A DNA stretch of 64,000 nt, taken from positions 10,703-74,702 of the forward strand of contig JBAYHW010000004.1 of the NCBI GenBank assembly GCA_041665925.1, in the 5' to 3' direction. The notes beneath the pieces are model-generated. The model was not told the origin of the DNA, ran no database searches, and was given only the letters and a program-made list of their open reading frames with translations. The DNA is from Minisyncoccota bacterium. GTDB taxonomy: Bacteria > Patescibacteriota > Minisyncoccia > Phycocordibacterales > UBA9973. A program made the position numbers and the translations under genes. Positions 5,651-45,268 of the stretch are shown here, piece after piece (the stretch's first letter is position 1; every line of letters starts with the position of its first letter).

Positions 5651-6847
5651 TTATATCATGGAGTCCATAGGCACGTCCTCTGGAAGCTCAAGCTGAGTTA
5701 AATTTTTTCTCTTACGATACAAAACCCAAAAAGCCAAGAGTAAACAAAGTGCACTAAAAAGAAAAGGCATTGATTTATTGGCGTCAAACATTATTCCCGA
5801 AAGAAAAGGACTAATGGTCATACTGAGCGAAGTTATTGAAGCTAAAATCCCCAAGACTTCACCTCTTTCGTGTACTGGAGTCTGCCCAACAACCTGACTC
5901 GTCATCACAACTCTGAGAATGGATTGCCCGAAGGTCGTCAGCACCAAGGCTAAAGCAAAGATAAGAAAAGTTTTAGTATTTAAAAATAAAAACCCAACAA
6001 CAAAGACAATTAGCATAAGTAGCTCTAGAGTGGGCTCTTTAAAATATTTAAGCCAAATATGCTTCATGGCTAAACCTTGATTTATAGCGATGATAACTCC
6101 GATGGCTGCAAACACAAACCCCACAATCAATTCATTGAAGTAAAAAACGTCTCGCATATATAGAGAAAAGATTGATTGAAAGCTAGCAATAGCTAAACCG
6201 AATAAAAACCATGCTAGATAATTCCCCCGAAGGGCGTAACTCTTTACTGCACGCAATAAAGGAATAAAGGGGTTAATGGTAATAGCTCTCGTGCTTAAAT
6301 TTTTATGCGTTTCCGGTAAAATAAAATAAGCTAAGACACCATTGGTTAAGGCAAGCGCCCCAACAAACCAAAACGGCACAGAATGCCCGAAGTGACCCAA
6401 GACTCCCCCAAGGGAAGGTCCGACAATAAAGCCTATTCCAAACACAGCTCCAATAACACCCAAGTTTACTGTTCTTTCCTTATCATCTTTCGCTAAGTCC
6501 GACAGGTAACTCTGAGCAATAGGAAAATTCCCTGCCATAACTCCATCTATTATTCGCCCAATAAAAAGAAATAATATATTTGGCGCGCCTGCGAATACAA
6601 ACCATCCTATGGCGGTGCTAAAAATACTCATGATAAGCACTGGCCGACGTCCAATGCGATCCGAAAGCGCTCCTAGCACAGGTGCACTAAAAAAAGAACA
6701 TAAGGCATACACAGCGAAAAGAGATGTAATCAATAGGGCTGACTTACTGAAACCAGAAACATAAAAAGGAAGAATAGGGATAACTACCCCGAGCCCGATA
6801 ACATCAATAAAAACTGTAAGTAAAATTGTAATTTTCGTTTTGGACAT
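5651..6847 (-). CDS. MFS transporter (drug:H+ antiporter-like)
   Basis: 12-TM profile; MFS signature GRRPVL-like loop in translation. Confidence 0.8.
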   Translation of the reverse strand: MSKTKITILLTVFIDVIGLGVVIPILPFYVSGFSKSALLITSLFAVYALCSFFSAPVLGALSDRIGRRPVLIMSIFSTAIGWFVFAGAPNILFLFIGRIIDGVMAGNFPIAQSYLSDLAKDDKERTVNLGVIGAVFGIGFIVGPSLGGVLGHFGHSVPFWFVGALALTNGVLAYFILPETHKNLSTRAITINPFIPLLRAVKSYALRGNYLAWFLFGLAIASFQSIFSLYMRDVFYFNELIVGFVFAAIGVIIAINQGLAMKHIWLKYFKEPTLELLMLIVFVVGFLFLNTKTFLIFALALVLTTFGQSILRVVMTSQVVGQTPVHERGEVLGILASITSLSMTISPFLSGIMFDANKSMPFLFSALCLLLAFWVLYRKRKNLTQLELPEDVPMDSMI

Positions 6848-11363: not shown

Positions 11364-12302
11364 TTATTTTGTTTTTTCTAAAATTCGTAACTTTGCACTT
11401 CTGGCTCTGGGGTTATTTTTTAATTCTTCAGATCCCGCTATTATTGGCTTTTTATTTATCAGTTTTGCTTGGCCTTCTTTTTCTAATTCTTTAAAAAATC
11501 TTTTTACTATTCTGTCTTCTAAACTATGAAAAGAAATGACTGACATCCTCCCATTCACCCTAAGTGCATTAAACCCTTTCCTCAAACCAGTCTCTAAGCT
11601 TCGAAGTTCATCATTGACTGCTATCCGTAAAGCTTGAAACGTTCGTGTGGCGCAGTGCACCCTCTCTCTCTTATATGCCCCACCCACTGCACCTTCTATT
11701 ATCTTTACTAAATCGAACGTGGTCTTAATTTCTGCTTTTTTTCTGTGTTCCACGATAGCTTTAGCAATTCTTCGGCTTAGCTTCTCTTCGCCATAACCAT
11801 AGATAATGTCGGCTATGCTTTGCTCTTCCCAAGTATTTACAATCTCCCCCGCTGTAATATCTTCCGGAAGAGGATTTTCCTTCATGGTCATTAAGAGTGG
11901 TTCATCGATCAAAAAAGAAAATCCTCGCCCAGAACTCCCCAACTGATCCGAACTTAAACCTAGATCGAATACAATCGCATCTACTTCTTGGGTACAATTC
12001 TTTTGCAACACTTCGTCTATATCTCGAAAGTTCGCATTGATGAAAGAAATATCACAATTCAAGATGCTAAACTTATCTCCGACTCGTTCAAAAACGTTTC
12101 TGTCTTGATCAAGGGCAATAATTTTCACTTTGGGAAATCTTTTACAAATTTCCGCCGAGTGCCCTCCACCACCGAAGGTGCAATCAAGTACAAACGAGCC
12201 TGGACCTAAGTTCAAACCATCTATTGTTTCTTTTAAAAGAACTGTCTTGTGTATGCTTTCCATAATTGTTGTTTTTGCAAACACAATTTTAGGGGATTTC
12301 AA
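11364..12302 (-). CDS. rsmH: 16S rRNA m4C1402 methyltransferase RsmH (MraW)
   Basis: VLDCTFGGGGHS motif. Confidence 0.9.
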   Translation of the reverse strand: MKSPKIVFAKTTIMESIHKTVLLKETIDGLNLGPGSFVLDCTFGGGGHSAEICKRFPKVKIIALDQDRNVFERVGDKFSILNCDISFINANFRDIDEVLQKNCTQEVDAIVFDLGLSSDQLGSSGRGFSFLIDEPLLMTMKENPLPEDITAGEIVNTWEEQSIADIIYGYGEEKLSRRIAKAIVEHRKKAEIKTTFDLVKIIEGAVGGAYKRERVHCATRTFQALRIAVNDELRSLETGLRKGFNALRVNGRMSVISFHSLEDRIVKRFFKELEKEGQAKLINKKPIIAGSEELKNNPRARSAKLRILEKTK

Positions 12303-12369
12303 GGCTATAGGCCAAGAACGTTATTTGGATTTTATATAAATCCGTCCCCTAAAATTATGTTTTCAAAAA

Positions 12370-15068: not shown

Positions 15069-15536
15069 TTAAGATACGCTGATGATTTTATAATTGACTA
15101 CCCCGTTTGGAGTTTTGAAGGAAACACTGTCTCCTTTCTTTTTTCCAAACAACGCAACTCCTACTGGAGAATGGTTAGAAATTTTTCCAAGTGTCATATC
15201 TGCCTCTTCACTTCCTACTATAACATATTTTTTTTCTTCTTGAGTGCCTTCCTTTTGCACAACTACCTTGGAGCCTATTTCAATTATATCTCCACCGCCG
15301 CCTTTAACAGTCTGTGCATCTTGCAGTATCTTTTCAATTTTCAGAATGCGTGCTTCTAGCTTACCCTGCTCTTCACGGGTTTGATGATATTCGGCGTTCT
15401 CTGATAAGTCTCCCAGGGACTTGGCATACTCTAAATTGGCCAAAATTTCTTTTCTTTTTGGGCCTTTTAAGTCAACAAGCTCGGCTTCTAGAGCTCGTCT
15501 TTTTTCTATTGTTATATAATCTCCAGCTTGGTTCAT
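15069..15536 (-). CDS. greA: transcription elongation factor GreA
   Basis: N-terminal coiled coil plus FKBP-like C-domain. Confidence 0.85.
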   Translation of the reverse strand: MNQAGDYITIEKRRALEAELVDLKGPKRKEILANLEYAKSLGDLSENAEYHQTREEQGKLEARILKIEKILQDAQTVKGGGGDIIEIGSKVVVQKEGTQEEKKYVIVGSEEADMTLGKISNHSPVGVALFGKKKGDSVSFKTPNGVVNYKIISVS

Positions 15537-15672
15537 CCTATTTATTTAATATTGTAATTAAAAACGATTAAATCCCGCTAACGGGATTCATAGATAGCTT
15601 ATATTAAACTTTTTTAATAAAAAGTCAATGACTCCTTGCTAAAAATCTTTTTTATGATAACCTTAGGTTCAT

Positions 15673-15909: not shown

Positions 15910-16248
15910 ATGGACCGTAAGTTTTCTAAAATCAAAAATGACATTTTAGGGAAAGACTATTCCCTATCTATCGCCTTCGTAAGTGAGAAAAAATCTAGAG
16001 AATTAAATAAGAAATATAGGAAAAAAGACAGGGCTACAAATGTTTTGTCTTTTGCATTACGTAAAAATGAAGGAGAACTGGTCTTATGTAAAGCTGTGAT
16101 AAAAAAAGAAGCAAGAGATTTTGGAAAAACTTTTGCTCAATTCTTGGGATTTTTAGTTATCCACGGAATGCTACACCTAAAAGGCTACGATCATGGAAAA
16201 AAAATGGAACGATTAGAAGAAAAATACTTGTCCCGTACTAAATTTTAA
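15910..16248 (+). CDS. ybeY: rRNA maturation endoribonuclease YbeY
   Basis: H-x3-H-x5-H motif HGMLHLKGYDH. Confidence 0.85.
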   Translation: MDRKFSKIKNDILGKDYSLSIAFVSEKKSRELNKKYRKKDRATNVLSFALRKNEGELVLCKAVIKKEARDFGKTFAQFLGFLVIHGMLHLKGYDHGKKMERLEEKYLSRTKF

Positions 16249-16299
16249 AATAAGTGATATAATATTGATATTAGAATTTAAAATTTTAGTATCGGGATG
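16226..16299 (+). repeat. start-codon-embedded inverted-repeat element, subfamily A (arms ACTTGTCCCGTACTAAATTTT / AAAATTTTAGTATCGGGATG; ATG = ftsA start)
   Basis: Left arm identical 21-mer to 171..191; right arm contains ATG 16297. Confidence 0.7.
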
Positions 16300-22583: not shown

Positions 22584-23024
22584 ATGAAATCATATAAATA
22601 TGTAAAAATGATGTTCTGGTTAGGTCTCGCAGGGGTATTGTTCTCTGGATATCTAAGCAGTGTGAAGTTTTTCACCTCCACTTGTGCCCTTAATGAGCCT
22701 TGCCCTTATTTCCTCGGCTACCCTGCTTGCTATTTTGGCTTTGGAATGTTTCTTATTATTTTCGTCTCGGCCCTACTCGGACTTATGAAGAAAATTTCTG
22801 AAAAAGGAACTGCGCAAATTTTAACTACTATCTCAGCCCTCGGAATACTCTTCGCAGGATATTTCACAATTCCTGAAATTCAGAAACTTTTATCAAATAC
22901 TGAAACAGGATACTCCCTCGGCTTACCTACCTGCGCATATGGGCTTGTCTTCTATCTCTTAATTTTTATTCTCTCACTTTCGTATTTAAGGAAAGGTGAA
23001 CAAAGTATAAATGGATCCCGTTAG
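22584..23024 (+). CDS. polytopic membrane protein with paired Cys (DsbB/VKOR-like thiol-oxidoreductase?)
   Basis: 4 TM helices; C-x5-C loop and second Cys-containing loop. Confidence 0.35.
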   Translation: MKSYKYVKMMFWLGLAGVLFSGYLSSVKFFTSTCALNEPCPYFLGYPACYFGFGMFLIIFVSALLGLMKKISEKGTAQILTTISALGILFAGYFTIPEIQKLLSNTETGYSLGLPTCAYGLVFYLLIFILSLSYLRKGEQSINGSR

Positions 23025-23098
23025 AGATAATAAGATACATGTTTCTAACCTTGAGGAAATAATTGTAAAAAAATATGGTAATCTCTAACGGGATGGAT
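23011..23098 (+). repeat. start-codon-embedded inverted-repeat element, subfamily B (ATGGATCCCGTTAGAGAT ... ATCTCTAACGGGATGGAT; ATG = udg start)
   Basis: 16/18 inverted repeat, 52-nt spacer; right arm carries ATG 23094. Confidence 0.7.
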
Positions 23099-27230: not shown

Positions 27231-27314
27231 TTGATCCCGTAGTGAATTTTGCCAACGCGCTTTAGCGCCTTATAAATATTGGCAAAATCTACTACAGGAT
27301 GATATTATTAGGGC

Positions 27315-27395
27315 ATGGATCCCGTTAAAAATAGCCGCGCCAGCGGTCCCACGGACTCGTCAAAAAAGACGAGCGCGATTTCTAATGGGATGGAT
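27315..27395 (+). repeat. start-codon-embedded inverted-repeat element, subfamily B (ATG = valS start)
   Basis: ATGGATCCCGTTAAAAAT ... ATTTCTAATGGGATGGAT, GC-rich hairpin spacer. Confidence 0.65.
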
Positions 27396-29510
27396 GAGAA
27401 GCTAAAGAAACCCTACGACCCTAAAAACACAGAAGAAAGAATATACAAACTCTGGGAAGAGTCTGGTTTTTTTAGCCCGGATAATTTACCAGGAAACAGA
27501 GAAGAGGCCTTTACTATAATTATGCCCCCAGCTAATGCCAACGGCTCCCTGCATGCGGGACACGGCTTGGTCATGACCATTGAGGACATTATGGTACGCT
27601 ATAAGAGAATGCAAGGTTATAGAACTCTTTGGCTTCCTGGACTCGACCATGCCGGCTTTGAGACACAAGTAGTCTATGAAAAAAAATTAGAAAAAGAAGG
27701 CCGCACTAGATTCGGAATGGATAGAGATGTTTTATATAAAGAAATTCTTGACTTTACCTTAACTAATTCTAAAAATATTAAGTCGCAAATAAAACAGCTC
27801 GGAGCATCTTGCGATTGGTCTCGAGAGAAATTTACTCTAGATGACAGTGTGGTTAAAACTGTTTACCAAACATTTAAAAGAATGTATGATGACGATTTAG
27901 TATATCGAGGTAATAGAATAGTGAGCTGGTGTTCCAAACATCAAACTTCTTTTTCTGATTTAGAAATAAAAGACGAGGAACGAGTTGAGCCATATTATTA
28001 TTTAAAATACGGACCATTTATTATATCTACCTCACGTCCCGAAACAAAGTTTGGAGATAAATACGTGACTATGCATCCGGATGACAAAAGGTATGCGGAG
28101 TATAAAAACGGCCAAAAAATAAATCTGGAATGGATAAATGGGCCACTAGAGGCCACAATAATAAAAGATGAGGCCGTAGATATGGAATTCGGAACCGGTG
28201 TCATGACTATAACTCCATGGCATGACGTTGCCGATTTTGGGATAGCAGAAAGACATAATTTGGACAAAGAACAAGTCATAGATGAACACGGAAAGCTTTT
28301 ACCTATCGCGGGAGAATTTGCAGGTATGCATATCAAAAAAGCTCGCCCCCTTATTATAGAAAAATTGCAGGCGAAAGGTCTGGTAAAAAAAATAGACGAA
28401 AATTACAAACACGTTGTGCGCACGTGTTATAAATGTGGAACGATTATTGAACCTCAAATAAAAAATCAATGGTTCGTTAAGATGAAACCCTTAGCAGAAA
28501 AAGCGTTAGAGAAAATAAATAGTGAAGAAATAAAATACATTCCAGAACATTATAAAAAAGTTACCACGTATTGGCTGGAGAATATTATGGATTGGAATAT
28601 TTCTAGACAAATTGTCTGGGGTATTCCTATCCCTGCGAAAATTTGTACTAAATGCGGACACGGAATGGTAGACCTAGAAAATAAAATTTCTAAATGCGAT
28701 AAATGTGGGGGCGTTGTAACTCAAGACTCAGACACTTTCGATACGTGGTTTTCTTCTAGTCAGTGGCCTTACGTAGTGCTTGAATACCCCGAAGACTCAG
28801 ATTTTAAAACATTTTATCCTACTAGTGTGATGGAAACAGCTGGAGATTTGGTTTTCTTTTGGGTTGCTCGGATGATTATGATGGGCTTATATGTGACTGG
28901 GGAAATCCCGTTTGAAACTGTATACATGCATGGAATGGTTCTCGATGCAAAAAGTCAAAAAATGAGTAAAAGTAAGGGTAATGTAATTGACCCACTAACT
29001 TACACTGAGCAGTTTGGCACAGATGCTTTTCGTATGGGAATGATAGTCGGTAATACTCCTGGAACTTCGTTAGCACTTTCCCCTGATAAAATCAGAGGTT
29101 ATAAAAACTTTGCAAATAAAATTTGGAATGCAACCCGCTTCGTCTTAGACAATACAAAAGATTTTGTTATTCCAGAAAATCCAAATGATATTGAGTATGA
29201 TGAAGAAGACAAGCAATCCGATGCGGAGTTAAAAACCCTAGTCACCGAAATTACGAAAGAAATGGATGAGTTTAAATTCTACATAGTCGCCGAAAAACTT
29301 TATCATTATTTCTGGCACACTTTCGCTGATATAATAATAGAACGCTCAAAAAAGAAAAACACTGATTCGACCAAAGCGCTACTTCTTACCCAGCTCACAA
29401 CCTTGCTCAAGGCACTACATCCTTTTATCCCTTTTGTAACAGAAGAAATTTGGTCGATGATACCAAGGAAAGATAATAATCTTTTAATCGTTGAAAAATG
29501 GCCATCTTAA
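27390..29510 (+). CDS. valS: valyl-tRNA synthetase (short form lacking C-terminal coiled coil; ORF track start 27315 lies inside the repeat element)
   Basis: HAGH (HIGH) and KMSKS motifs; ValRS-like RYKRMQGY..DHAG, SDLEI. Confidence 0.85.
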   Translation: MDEKLKKPYDPKNTEERIYKLWEESGFFSPDNLPGNREEAFTIIMPPANANGSLHAGHGLVMTIEDIMVRYKRMQGYRTLWLPGLDHAGFETQVVYEKKLEKEGRTRFGMDRDVLYKEILDFTLTNSKNIKSQIKQLGASCDWSREKFTLDDSVVKTVYQTFKRMYDDDLVYRGNRIVSWCSKHQTSFSDLEIKDEERVEPYYYLKYGPFIISTSRPETKFGDKYVTMHPDDKRYAEYKNGQKINLEWINGPLEATIIKDEAVDMEFGTGVMTITPWHDVADFGIAERHNLDKEQVIDEHGKLLPIAGEFAGMHIKKARPLIIEKLQAKGLVKKIDENYKHVVRTCYKCGTIIEPQIKNQWFVKMKPLAEKALEKINSEEIKYIPEHYKKVTTYWLENIMDWNISRQIVWGIPIPAKICTKCGHGMVDLENKISKCDKCGGVVTQDSDTFDTWFSSSQWPYVVLEYPEDSDFKTFYPTSVMETAGDLVFFWVARMIMMGLYVTGEIPFETVYMHGMVLDAKSQKMSKSKGNVIDPLTYTEQFGTDAFRMGMIVGNTPGTSLALSPDKIRGYKNFANKIWNATRFVLDNTKDFVIPENPNDIEYDEEDKQSDAELKTLVTEITKEMDEFKFYIVAEKLYHYFWHTFADIIIERSKKKNTDSTKALLLTQLTTLLKALHPFIPFVTEEIWSMIPRKDNNLLIVEKWPS

Positions 29511-43519: not shown

Positions 43520-45199
43520 TTAAAGCTCTTCTTGAGAAGGTGCGATGACTTTGGCTTTCCAGAATTTAGTCTTGAGAGTAACTATCAATTCACTTAATTC
43601 TTCACTCTTGAGTAAATACAACACCACTATAGCCGCCATAATTCCTAAGATTCCAGAAATAAATCCTTGCAATAACACACCCCAGAAAGTAGTCGTCCCG
43701 AAAACTGGCGAAAGAGCATTCAAGCTTAAATAGCTCACCAACCCCAAGAAAAATGAAGCCCCTAAGCTCTGGAAAAATGTTTTCGTAATAAAAGATTCGT
43801 TCGGCATAAAGTCTTTCTTTACAAACACCCAATGTAAAATAAAGTTAAAAATGGTTCCAATAGAATATGCAAGTGGAAGCATAAGTATCTCCGTCCCTGT
43901 AATATCAGTAACCTTCAAAAGTGACTCTATAAAATATCTAAAGAAAAGCCAATTTTCAAAAAGACGAATAAATACGAAAGATAAAACTATAATCAAAAGA
44001 GAAGATAAGAAGTTCACAATGAGCGGACGCTTGGTGTCACCTATCGCATAATACGAACGAGAAAGAAGAGTAATCATCCCCTGAGCAAGAATCGAAACGG
44101 AAAAAATAGCCAGACACGCAGCGACCAGACGGGTATTGTCCCAGGAAAAACTTCCGGAGCCTAAAATCACACGGACTATCTGTGCTCGAACAACAATGAA
44201 AAGAAAAATTACTGGTAAAGACCAGAAGACGATAGCTCGTGCGGCACTCTTCAAGTGCTGTTTAAATTCATCTTTTTTACCACTGCTGAAAGATTTTGCT
44301 AAAACTGGGAACGCAGCCACGGCATAAGAAATTCCTATAATATTTAATGGGACAGATTGAAGATTGAAAGCAAAATTAAATACTGAGATAGAGCCCTTTT
44401 GTAAATACGAAGCTAAGGCAATTATAGAAATCAGAGCTATGTTGTTAAAAGCCAGGCCCAACGTCCGTGGAAGTGAAGTTAAAGCTATGTTTTTTATATC
44501 CTTAAAATTTATTGAGAACGAAAATCTAGGGGTAAAACCACAACTACTGGAGGCGAAAACTTGTATTCCAAAATGCATCAAAGCTCCAAATACCACCCCT
44601 ATACTCAAACCGTAAATTCCAAAGATTGGATAAAAGACAATGACTCCAGCGATAATACCCAAATTATAAAAAATTGGGCTTAAAGAATAAATAAAAAATT
44701 TACGAAAAAGCTGAGTGACAGTCCCGAAAAGATTTGATAAACCCATTAGAATCGGTGAAAGCAACATTATTCTAGATAATAAAATAACTTGCATCTGGCT
44801 CTCCCCCACAAACCCCGGAGCAATAAAAAACACCAAATGTGGCATAATCAAAAAGGCTATTAAAGAAACAGACACCATCAGAGAAAAGAAAACAGTGAAG
44901 ATGTCGTTCAAATATTTTTTTGCTTCTTCTGTGACTTTATCTCCTTCCATTCTCGCCACCAGAAAAGGAATAATCACCGTGATAGAAGCAAGAGAAGCAA
45001 TACAAATAAAAATCAAATCTGGCACCCGAAAAGCCGCATAGTAAGCATCGAGTGAAGAAGAAGGTCCGATAAAGTGAGCGATAGATCTATCTCGAAAAAG
45101 AGCCAGGATTTGTGAGAGTAAAGTCAGACTACCAAGCAGAAGAGCCGCTTGGTTTACGCTCCCTGTTTCTTTAGTAAAAATTCTCAGAATTTTCTCCAT
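43520..45199 (-). CDS. murJ: lipid II flippase MurJ
   Basis: MurJ/MviN N-terminal conserved RDR, 14-TM profile. Confidence 0.85.
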   Translation of the reverse strand: MEKILRIFTKETGSVNQAALLLGSLTLLSQILALFRDRSIAHFIGPSSSLDAYYAAFRVPDLIFICIASLASITVIIPFLVARMEGDKVTEEAKKYLNDIFTVFFSLMVSVSLIAFLIMPHLVFFIAPGFVGESQMQVILLSRIMLLSPILMGLSNLFGTVTQLFRKFFIYSLSPIFYNLGIIAGVIVFYPIFGIYGLSIGVVFGALMHFGIQVFASSSCGFTPRFSFSINFKDIKNIALTSLPRTLGLAFNNIALISIIALASYLQKGSISVFNFAFNLQSVPLNIIGISYAVAAFPVLAKSFSSGKKDEFKQHLKSAARAIVFWSLPVIFLFIVVRAQIVRVILGSGSFSWDNTRLVAACLAIFSVSILAQGMITLLSRSYYAIGDTKRPLIVNFLSSLLIIVLSFVFIRLFENWLFFRYFIESLLKVTDITGTEILMLPLAYSIGTIFNFILHWVFVKKDFMPNESFITKTFFQSLGASFFLGLVSYLSLNALSPVFGTTTFWGVLLQGFISGILGIMAAIVVLYLLKSEELSELIVTLKTKFWKAKVIAPSQEEL

Positions 45200-45268
45200 C
45201 CCGTTAGAAATTTAACAAATTAATTTTTTGTAATGAAATATGGTTCATAGATTTCTAACGGGGTCCAT
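45194..45268 (-). repeat. start-codon-embedded inverted-repeat element, subfamily B (minus orientation; ATG = murJ start 45197..45199)
   Basis: rc: ATGGACCCCGTTAGAAAT ... ATTTCTAACGGGATGGAG. Confidence 0.7.

Follow-up and report, generated by a model that had tools for sequence, protein, structure and literature searches.

The window described here is a stretch of 64,000 nucleotides from a Minisyncoccota bacterium (assembly GCA_041665925.1, contig JBAYHW010000004.1, positions 10,703 to 74,702), and at the beginnings of three of its genes, udg, valS and murJ, lies a small element bounded by inverted repeats. A preliminary description of the sequence had reported that these sites share one architecture in gene orientation, and all three do read in that way: on the plus strand the udg site (23011-23098) is ATGGAT-CCCGTTAGAGAT-(52 nt)-ATCTCTAACGGG-ATGGAT and the valS site (27315-27395) is ATGGAT-CCCGTTAAAAAT-(45 nt)-ATTTCTAATGGG-ATGGAT, and on the minus strand the murJ site (45268-45194) is ATGGAC-CCCGTTAGAAAT-(39 nt)-ATTTCTAACGGG-ATGGAG, the numbers in brackets being the spacer lengths. 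The common pattern, ATGGAY-CCCGTTARARAT…ATYTCTAAYGGG-ATGGA, is present three times where no occurrence is expected, and the exact 17-18-nt end patterns ATGGAYCCCGTTARARAT and ATYTCTAAYGGGATGGA have three matches each, with 0.00 expected from 100 shuffles of the window. The arms pair perfectly over 14 nt at udg, over 14 nt with one G-U pair and one mismatch at valS, and over 12-15 nt at murJ; an inverted-repeat finder recovers the udg pair (I14, 14 nt, 100% complementary) and the murJ pair (I13). RNA folding returns the expected hairpin in every case, at -26.2 kcal/mol for udg (z -4.7), -32.3 kcal/mol for valS (z -3.1) and -17.6 kcal/mol for murJ (z -2.7).

On either side of the inverted repeat stands one member of a direct repeat, the hexamer ATGGAY to the left and ATGGAN to the right, and their TGGA core is a target-site duplication, a point absent from the preliminary description. 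That the ATG at the right arm is the true gene start, as had been claimed, is borne out by 120 ValRS orthologues, which mostly begin MDEKL or MNEKL, and by 120 MurJ orthologues, which begin MEK or MER; the left arm of the udg copy does overlap the stop codon of the upstream open reading frame (ORF), a TAG at 23022-23024. The similarity that had been noticed between udg and valS beyond the ATG (MDKNEKLK versus MDEKLKK) is also present, but it is not part of the element: orthologues that lack the element have the same N-termini (MDEKL… in ValRS, MEKIL… in MurJ and MDK.EKL in UDG), and the similarity is therefore native sequence. For the same reason an element reaching into the coding sequence (GAGAAGCT…) is ruled out.

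Filled and empty sites among relatives

A second Paceibacterota genome from the same sample (ERZ27249449), here called the sister genome and represented by one locus with valS (L121) and one with murJ (L208), has the same gene order as the window (udg, NTP-transferase, GDH, tsaD, valS, prsW, hsp20), and its ValRS and MurJ are 87% and 85% identical to those of the window. Both of these sister sites are empty. At valS there is a single ATGAAT, within …gatattattagagcATGAATgaagat…, where the window has …gatattattagggcATGGAT, the element and then ATGGATgagaag…; at murJ there is a single ATGGAG, within …aacTAAatagtaagaATGGAGaagatt…, where the window has …caaTAAaaataaataATGGAC, the element and then ATGGAGaaaatt…. 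The flanks are similar in both comparisons, and each empty site holds the 4-mer as a single copy. Five more valS orthologues are likewise empty, and the udg orthologue in L121 starts ATGGACAAG, without the element. When the element is deleted from the udg site of the window, what remains is …AGTATAAATGGATAAAAATGAG, in which the TAA of the upstream ORF overlaps the udg ATG (ATGGATAA) as at an ordinary operon junction; with the element in place, that ORF ends at the left-arm TAG instead.

The start of valS is also filled in other genomes, by other versions of the element. In L122 and L123 it carries an element with the core GATACATG, a core that in the window sits at udg and not at valS, and the spacer subfamily of the udg copy, GATACATGTTT, likewise recurs at the valS start of these two loci; in L133, whose ValRS is 45% identical, the version present is 125 nt long. 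Because the elements at this position differ in core, either the same valS site has been occupied repeatedly or the core has been exchanged.

Two further observations belong to this neighbourhood. L123 has another copy at 6624-6725, ATGGAT-CCCGTTAGAAAT…ATTTCTAAACGGG-ATGGAT, directly before hsp20, whereas hsp20 of the window (30244) is without one, which makes another difference between filled and empty sites. Just upstream of the valS copy in the window there is a second and different inverted-repeat element, with ends CCCGTAGTGAATTTTGCCAA and TTGGCAAAATCTACTACAGGA, that spans 27236-27299 (plus strand) and is flanked by a direct repeat of TGAT (27232-35 and 27300-03); the sister locus L121 has a single TGAT and no element. 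It sits at the 'TG' of the extended -10 of valS (TGATATTAT), and its RNA fold has an energy of -28.5 kcal/mol (z -6.1).

Table 1. Coordinates, within the window, of the element copies and of the reading frames that cross them.
Feature	Position	Strand	Details
udg copy, original start ATG (23011-23013) and left TGGA (23012-23015)	23011..23015	+	direct-repeat register
udg element, 78 bp	23016..23093	+	left repeat TCCCGTTAGAGAT 23016-23028, right repeat ATCTCTAACGGGA 23081-23093
udg rebuilt start (23093-23095; A of element, TG of duplication) and right TGGA (23094-23097)	23093..23097	+	
udg upstream ORF from original ATG, MDPVRDNKIHVSNLEEIIVKKYGNL then stop	23011..23088	+	stop TAA in right repeat, 4 nt before udg ATG
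valS copy, original start and left TGGA (27316-27319)	27315..27319	+	compared with empty site in L121
valS element, 71 bp	27320..27390	+	left repeat TCCCGTTAAAAAT, right repeat ATTTCTAATGGGA, GC-rich 45-nt spacer
valS rebuilt start (27390-27392) and right TGGA (27391-27394)	27390..27394	+	orthologues start MDEKL/MNEKL
Extended ValRS ORF	27315-29510	+	element open in frame; 25-residue extension MDPVKNSRASGPTDSSKKTSAISNG
murJ copy, original start (45268-45266) and left TGGA (45267-45264)	45264..45268	-	compared with empty site in L208
murJ element, 65 bp	45199..45263	-	left repeat CCCCGTTAGAAAT, right repeat ATTTCTAACGGGA, 39-nt spacer
murJ rebuilt start (45199-45197) and right TGGA (45198-45195)	45195..45199	-	orthologues start MEK
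murJ upstream ORF 1, MDPVRNL then stop	45268-45245	-	overlaps upstream ORF 2 by ATGA
murJ upstream ORF 2, MNHISLQKINLLNF then stop	45248-45204	-	stops at right-repeat TAA, 4 nt before murJ ATG
Probable decayed fourth copy before greA-like gene, ATGAAT-CCCGTTAGCGGGAT…AATAGG-ATGAAC	15531..15591	-	by inspection only

The last entry of the table is, judging from its sequence, a probable decayed copy that has kept the left end and the ATGAA direct repeat and has lost the right arm; its left end (CCCGTTAGCGGGATTTAATCG) folds as a short local hairpin.

Termini, duplications and landing sites across genomes

Further copies were gathered with the exact-arm pattern CCCGTTARARAT-N30-60-ATYTCTAAYGGG, taking one genome per species. 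The preliminary description had proposed a genome-wide count of copies, to which confinement to the three loci would have been adverse, and the outcome is decisively otherwise: at least 119 genome stretches carry these termini together with 4-bp duplications of their own. Among the matches listed, about two thirds of the hosts are Patescibacteria bins and about 25 matches are Planctomycetota (Pirellulales, Phycisphaerae, Sedimentisphaerales); the others are a few Omnitrophota and single Nitrospirota (on a 1.7-Mb contig), Elusimicrobia, WOR-3, KSB1, Verrucomicrobiales and proteobacterial bins, and one listed match lies in a single-cell genome (L100). The GC content of the host loci ranges from 30 to 63% (39% in the window), and that of the spacers tracks it, with r = 0.53 among the matches listed. 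A viral collection, scanned as a possible phage vector, yielded only 4 matching stretches.

All copies have terminal inverted repeats of 13 bp, YCCCGTTAGARAT and ATYTCTAACGGGR, with a variable 33-110 nt between them, so that the element measures 57-125 bp; it has no transposase gene, and its sole ORFs are short and incidental. In about 121 copies listed, positions -5 to -2 on the left equal positions +2 to +5 on the right in 75-86% of copies per position, against a background of ~23% at neighbouring positions and in other registers, and the 4-mer is perfectly duplicated in 75 of 125 listed copies. The duplicated 4-mer is YNNR, mostly TNNA, and is TTAA only once among the 75 perfect duplications. 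Between the duplication and CCCG stands a C or T on the left, with G or A as its partner on the right. The element can therefore be written Y-CCCGTTAGARAT … ATYTCTAACGGG-R, its target duplication being 4 bp long, and the inferred target is roughly R/TNNA/Y, the slashes bounding the duplicated bases. A duplication of 6 bp was considered and rejected, as agreement at the two outermost positions is limited to 41-44% of copies; because these outer matches are low, and are explained by the Y and R termini of the element mimicking the target, the length of the duplication is set at 4 bp.

Core lengths cluster at 57, 60, 63 and 66 nt and again at 75-83 nt, with some at 115-120 nt. The variable spacers fall into subfamilies, among them a GC-rich type (AGCCCGCC…GCGCGGGCG), a GGAAATC-TTTA-GATTTCC hairpin type, a purine-rich 33-mer that is common in Planctomycetota and a type that has an additional, third A(A/G)CGGGAT half-arm inside it. 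Some copies are decayed, with mismatches in their arms, and 'solo' arms are decayed small copies. Nested or tandem arrangements, in L059 (4374-4445), L088 (1006-1170) and L054 (7265-7545), have an extra CCCGTTA half-arm inside or two elements back to back, and suggest insertion of one element into another or recombination. The window itself holds two copies of a related element, at 177-242 and 16232-16296 (both on the plus strand), with arms CCCGTACTAAATTTT … AAAATTTTAGTAYCGGG; each is preceded by ACTTGT and directly followed by the ATG of a long ORF (at 243 and 16297), and both have a conserved internal TGnTAYAAT extended -10 and no visible target duplication.

Gene starts are one of three settings in which copies are found. 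Directly after the element, an ATG or GTG begins an ORF of 80 aa or more in 48 of 123 copies among the matches listed. The reconstructed empty sites are preceded by A in 24 of 26 members of the TGAA class and in 9 of 9 of the TGGA class, and several pairs read ATGAAC on the left against GTGAAA on the right; because of these pairs, the first base of the new start codon can be traced to the terminal purine of the element and its TG to the duplication. A second setting is the promoter: all 11 TTGA duplications among the matches listed are TTGAC -35 boxes, and in most of them a -10-like hexamer follows the right copy at a distance of 17-18 nt, as in GTTGACaaatcaaaaattatgctgTATAAT in L055.

The third setting is the interior of long ORFs, where about 20 of 127 copies lie in frame and read (V/I/L)(H/N/D)-PVR(N/D)…ISNG-V, the proteins concerned being FolD, GlyRS, GatB, FtsZ and a Mur ligase. 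Alignment of FolD with a solved structure is unbroken but for query residues 131-154, and alignment of GlyRS with a solved structure skips residues 205-229, the 'VEP' of the chain aligning on both sides, as a duplicated target predicts. Element length is a multiple of 3 in 67 of 112 copies, and 26 of 47 copies of the short class are stop-free in frame on both strands, compared with 15.2 ± 2.8 in shuffles. Starts account for ~23 of the ~122 non-coding TG[AG]A sites of the window, yet the three copies and the probable decayed one are all at starts, and there is therefore some preference beyond 'non-coding', which may reflect either targeting or selection. At about 1337-1400 in L067, a type IV pilin-like gene has in its 5' end (MITKISKRGFTLIELLVV) the sequence AAAATTTCTAAGCGGGGTTTTAC, which resembles the right arm with a GTTTAC flank and may be either a coincidence or an old insertion absorbed into coding sequence.

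Insertion and the expression of interrupted genes

We regard the three sites, with a probability of about 0.8, as insertions of a non-autonomous transposon resembling a MITE (miniature inverted-repeat transposable element), which rebuild the start codons that they interrupt and across which expression is likely relayed from the left ATG. One of the two models in the preliminary description was a MITE-like element that, on inserting at the 5' end of a gene, provides it with a start codon. Its mobile nature is upheld by the inverted repeats, the 4-bp duplication, the empty sister sites at valS and murJ, the different subfamilies at valS and the hundreds of copies elsewhere, but the start codon is supplied only in part, the element giving its first base, A or G.

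Insertion proceeds by a 4-bp staggered cut at an R/TNNA/Y-like target, which in the window was A/TGGA/N, at the very start of udg, valS and murJ. At the left junction the original ATG stays in its native promoter context, and at the right junction the last purine of the element (here A) combines with the duplicated TG into a new ATG before an unchanged coding sequence. Transcription and initiation would then persist at the left ATG; at valS, in-frame read-through would add 25 residues, and at udg and murJ translation would terminate at stops, the last of which is the TAA of the right repeat 4 nt before the new ATG, and then re-initiate. On -35 boxes, TTGA is duplicated and TTGAC regenerated, a design by which such insertions would be harmless, and inside proteins copies are read in frame as PVR(N/D)…ISNG.

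What can be seen of the expression signals is consistent with initiation at the left ATG. The preliminary description had remarked that the genome appears to lack Shine-Dalgarno (SD) sequences, and indeed an SD-like pentamer lies 4-12 nt before the start in only 3 of the 59 window genes. A -10-like TAnnWT hexamer, by comparison, ends 4-10 nt before the ATG in 24 of the 59, about twice its density elsewhere upstream. Because SD sequences are rare and -10-like hexamers lie so close to the ATG, many window genes look leaderless, which suggests that leaderless mRNAs are widespread in the genome of the host, a Paceibacterota/Nomurabacteria-like member of the Patescibacteria represented by a metagenome assembly. 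The valS promoter, TGATATTAT-N6-ATG with an extended -10, recurs upstream of valS in the orthologues examined, and the left ATG probably still initiates both transcription and translation at the three genes. A promoter in the right arm, for a leaderless start at the right ATG, was rejected by inspection, the ATTTCT before that ATG being unlike a -10 box.

Translational continuity, scored where the left ATG leads to the right one by read-through or by restart within a few nt of the stop, is kept at all three window copies. It is found in 21 of 37 start-site copies, compared with 11.0 ± 2.6 in spacer shuffles (maximum 17 in 300), an excess that suggests selection for continuity. Databases hold both 706-aa and 731-aa gene models of ValRS (P0001, P0002), and if the valS copy is read through, the extended ValRS would show the peptide MDPVKNSRASGPTDSSKK…. 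The spacers in L122 and L123 contain TATAAT and an in-frame ATG, annotated there as MKISNGM…, and an internal -10 box with an in-frame ATG of this kind is a candidate alternative route.

Several observations weigh against this interpretation or narrow its reach. No obvious translational path connects the left ATG to the right ATG in the remaining 16 of the 37 start-site copies; the relay is therefore not general, and other routes must exist. An autonomous copy was sought in 1.47 Mb of DNA from the collected loci, as arm pairs 400-5000 bp apart with matching 4-mers, and only pairs of separate small copies turned up, and in an all-against-all comparison of 727 ORFs from 123 loci no neighbouring gene recurred widely, the only recurrent ones being secretion ATPases, glycosyltransferases and ABC proteins, each in at most 7 loci. 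Because no transposase-bearing copy was found, the case for mobility rests on duplications and on presence and absence, not on a known enzyme. Spacers are unrelated among copies of one genome, which is unusual for a recently amplified MITE family, and a class of main-family copies with the left flank ACYTGT, which the two related window elements have as well, shows no duplication (7 loci: L017, L018, L024, L036, L071, L084 and L105). The conservation of the arms is in part an effect of ascertainment, because the collection was made with an exact-arm pattern, and the host taxa are those assigned to metagenome bins.

Alternatives and precedents

The second model of the preliminary description was a conserved cis-regulatory 5' leader hairpin (acting as an RNA switch, a thermosensor or a binding site for a protein) that would hide the AUG and so control translation in a genome without SD sequences. 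Such a hairpin would account for stems that are stable, and better than those of shuffles, with the A and U of the right AUG in the stem base, for the many copies that abut starts and for the arms being kept at the valS start of L122 and L123 while the spacers diverge. As an origin, however, it is largely refuted, and we would give it only a slim chance: the hairpin is absent from the closest valS and murJ orthologues and from five other valS loci, the spacers are unrelated, the genes downstream have no function in common, a hairpin does not account for the flanking direct repeats, and copies lie inside ORFs and upstream of or on -35 boxes, where they would not be leaders. In Rfam only tRNAs reached the gathering score, and no family matched the element even at E-values up to 1-5; what the relaxed search gave was an S15 leader outside the elements (17.6 bits against a cut-off of 39.5) and Staphylococcus-1 over the murJ copy (16 bits against a cut-off of 87.7, E 3.7).

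The hairpin or the upstream ORFs may nevertheless influence translation secondarily. It is also conceivable, if unlikely, that an element of transposon origin has been co-opted, so that its hairpin, upstream ORFs or internal promoter tune the downstream gene, through mRNA stability, the efficiency of coupling or a new promoter, and thereby account for its persistence at starts. Starts are over-represented even with non-coding TG[AG]A sites as the reference (4 window copies including the decayed one, against ~23 of ~122), translational continuity is enriched, and promoter-like sequences occur inside copies, as the extended -10 at 177-242 and 16232-16296 and as the TATAAT with in-frame ATG in L122 and L123. 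Yet occupancy is patchy among close relatives, the housekeeping genes do well without the element, and the enrichment at starts is also explicable by purifying selection against harmful insertions.

Core sites of attC follow GTTRRRY and RYYYAAC, and the arms of the element hold GTTAGAG and CTCTAAC, which resemble them. Together with the imperfect inverted repeats around a variable centre, this might indicate sites of a site-specific recombinase, either attC-like folded sites or a small invertible (phase-variable) segment, but such an origin is very improbable. The core-like motifs stand in the opposite order to those of attC, with GTT… first on both strands, and the flanking genes are syntenic housekeeping genes, not cassettes; on these two grounds integron attC was rejected. 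No recombinase or integrase recurs nearby, segments of 33-60 bp are very short for inversion, and the flanking duplications differ among copies, as would follow from a staggered cut of transposase type and not from a fixed crossover core. Chance similarity or an assembly artefact might be invoked where the window has as few as three copies, but it is scarcely credible for an element with no matches expected that is present in hundreds of independent assemblies, the single-cell genome L100 among them.

The ends of the element offer a lead on what mobilises it. The IS1380 family makes duplications of 4-5 bp and has 'CC' ends. piggyBac, for which IS1380 is used as the prokaryotic outgroup, duplicates TTAA and has CCC at or next to its end (PMC10813416). 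The element described here has a 4-bp duplication of TNNA type and YCCC termini, which resemble theirs, but its target is TNNA or YNNR and almost never TTAA, and kinship with piggyBac and IS1380 is a lead that we draw from this resemblance. REP/REPIN sequences, short GC-rich palindromes that have a conserved GTAG and an associated RAYT transposase gene and make no target duplication, were rejected as a match: a 4-bp duplication is present here, and there is no GTAG signature and no recurrent neighbour gene. The yeast mitochondrial 'byp' inserts and phage T4 gene 60 are short hairpin inserts between matching codons that are passed by ribosomes. No such hopping is needed here, read-through or stop-and-restart being sufficient to explain the three window copies.

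Other small repeats offer closer parallels in their relation to genes. The Rickettsia palindromic elements (RPEs) are likewise small palindromes that lie in frame in genes for housekeeping proteins and are translated (PMC10969869, PMC3184786). Compared by description, they are ~100-150 bp long and found only in Rickettsia, whereas the present element is 57-125 bp long, occurs in several phyla, is bounded by well-marked 13-bp termini with an evident 4-bp duplication, and takes start codons and -35 boxes as targets too. The Neisseria Correia (NEMIS) and REP2 repeats likewise stand immediately upstream of genes (PMC3184786, PMC10969869); Correia elements have terminal inverted repeats and a target duplication and can provide promoters, but they duplicate TA and are specific to the genus, and REP2 carries its own ATG, whereas here the ATG is made of the duplicated TG of the host and one base of the element, in host genes without SD sequences. 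Mycobacterial interspersed repetitive units (MIRUs) show tetranucleotide direct repeats at filled sites between operon genes, and have small ORFs that overlap the neighbouring genes in a way compatible with translational coupling (PMC3184786); they differ in forming tandem arrays, in their weak inverted repeats and in their restriction to mycobacteria.

The kind of element is thus already known, as a MITE, and its in-frame, promoter-bearing or ATG-bearing and 4-nt-repeat traits have precedents (PMC3184786, PMC10969869). A search of the literature by exact arm strings and by keywords found no description of the element itself. Nor did we find described the combination that it presents, namely 13-bp ends shared across several phyla, a 4-bp duplication that with the terminal bases rebuilds starts and -35 boxes, stops and open frames built into the arms, and repeated occupation of the same start codon.

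This combination invites a further and more speculative reading, tentative enough that we would hold it doubtful on balance, in which the element is a 'stealth' transposon family for very compact genomes, with ends that have evolved so that insertion into an essential landmark is survivable and with integration that is perhaps directed to promoter landmarks. A terminal C joined to a duplicated TTGA gives TTGAC, and a terminal purine joined to a duplicated TG gives ATG or GTG. The arms contain TAG and TAA stops in one frame and PVRN and ISNG in another, on both strands, and in that way would permit stop-restart relays at starts as well as translatable in-frame insertions in either orientation. 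Integration directed to the -35 hexamer and to the +1 ATG of leaderless genes would explain the repeated independent hits on valS by different subfamilies.

For uncultivated reduced genomes, those of Patescibacteria (the candidate phyla radiation, CPR) and others, the element matters in the first place for gene calling, as it lies on starts and inside essential enzymes: MKISNG… starts have already been called, ValRS appears at two lengths, and inserted segments within proteins can mislead structure models. It shows how a selfish element can establish itself where there is hardly any DNA to spare, by restoring the signal that it disrupts, and its copies offer naturally occurring systems for the study of re-initiation and leaderless translation in organisms beyond the reach of cultivation. 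That several phyla have these 13-bp ends in common implies a widely distributed transposase, possibly IS1380/piggyBac-like, that might be of interest as a tool, and strains in metagenomes could be tracked by whether their sites are filled or empty.

Elsewhere in the window, at 12272-12369, there is an unrelated 25-nt inverted repeat (TTTTTGCAAACACAATTTTAGGGGA and TCCCCTAAAATTATGTTTTCAAAAA; 92% complementary, with a 48-nt spacer) that ends 8 nt upstream of the ATG at 12263 on the minus strand and may be another family of small elements at a gene start.

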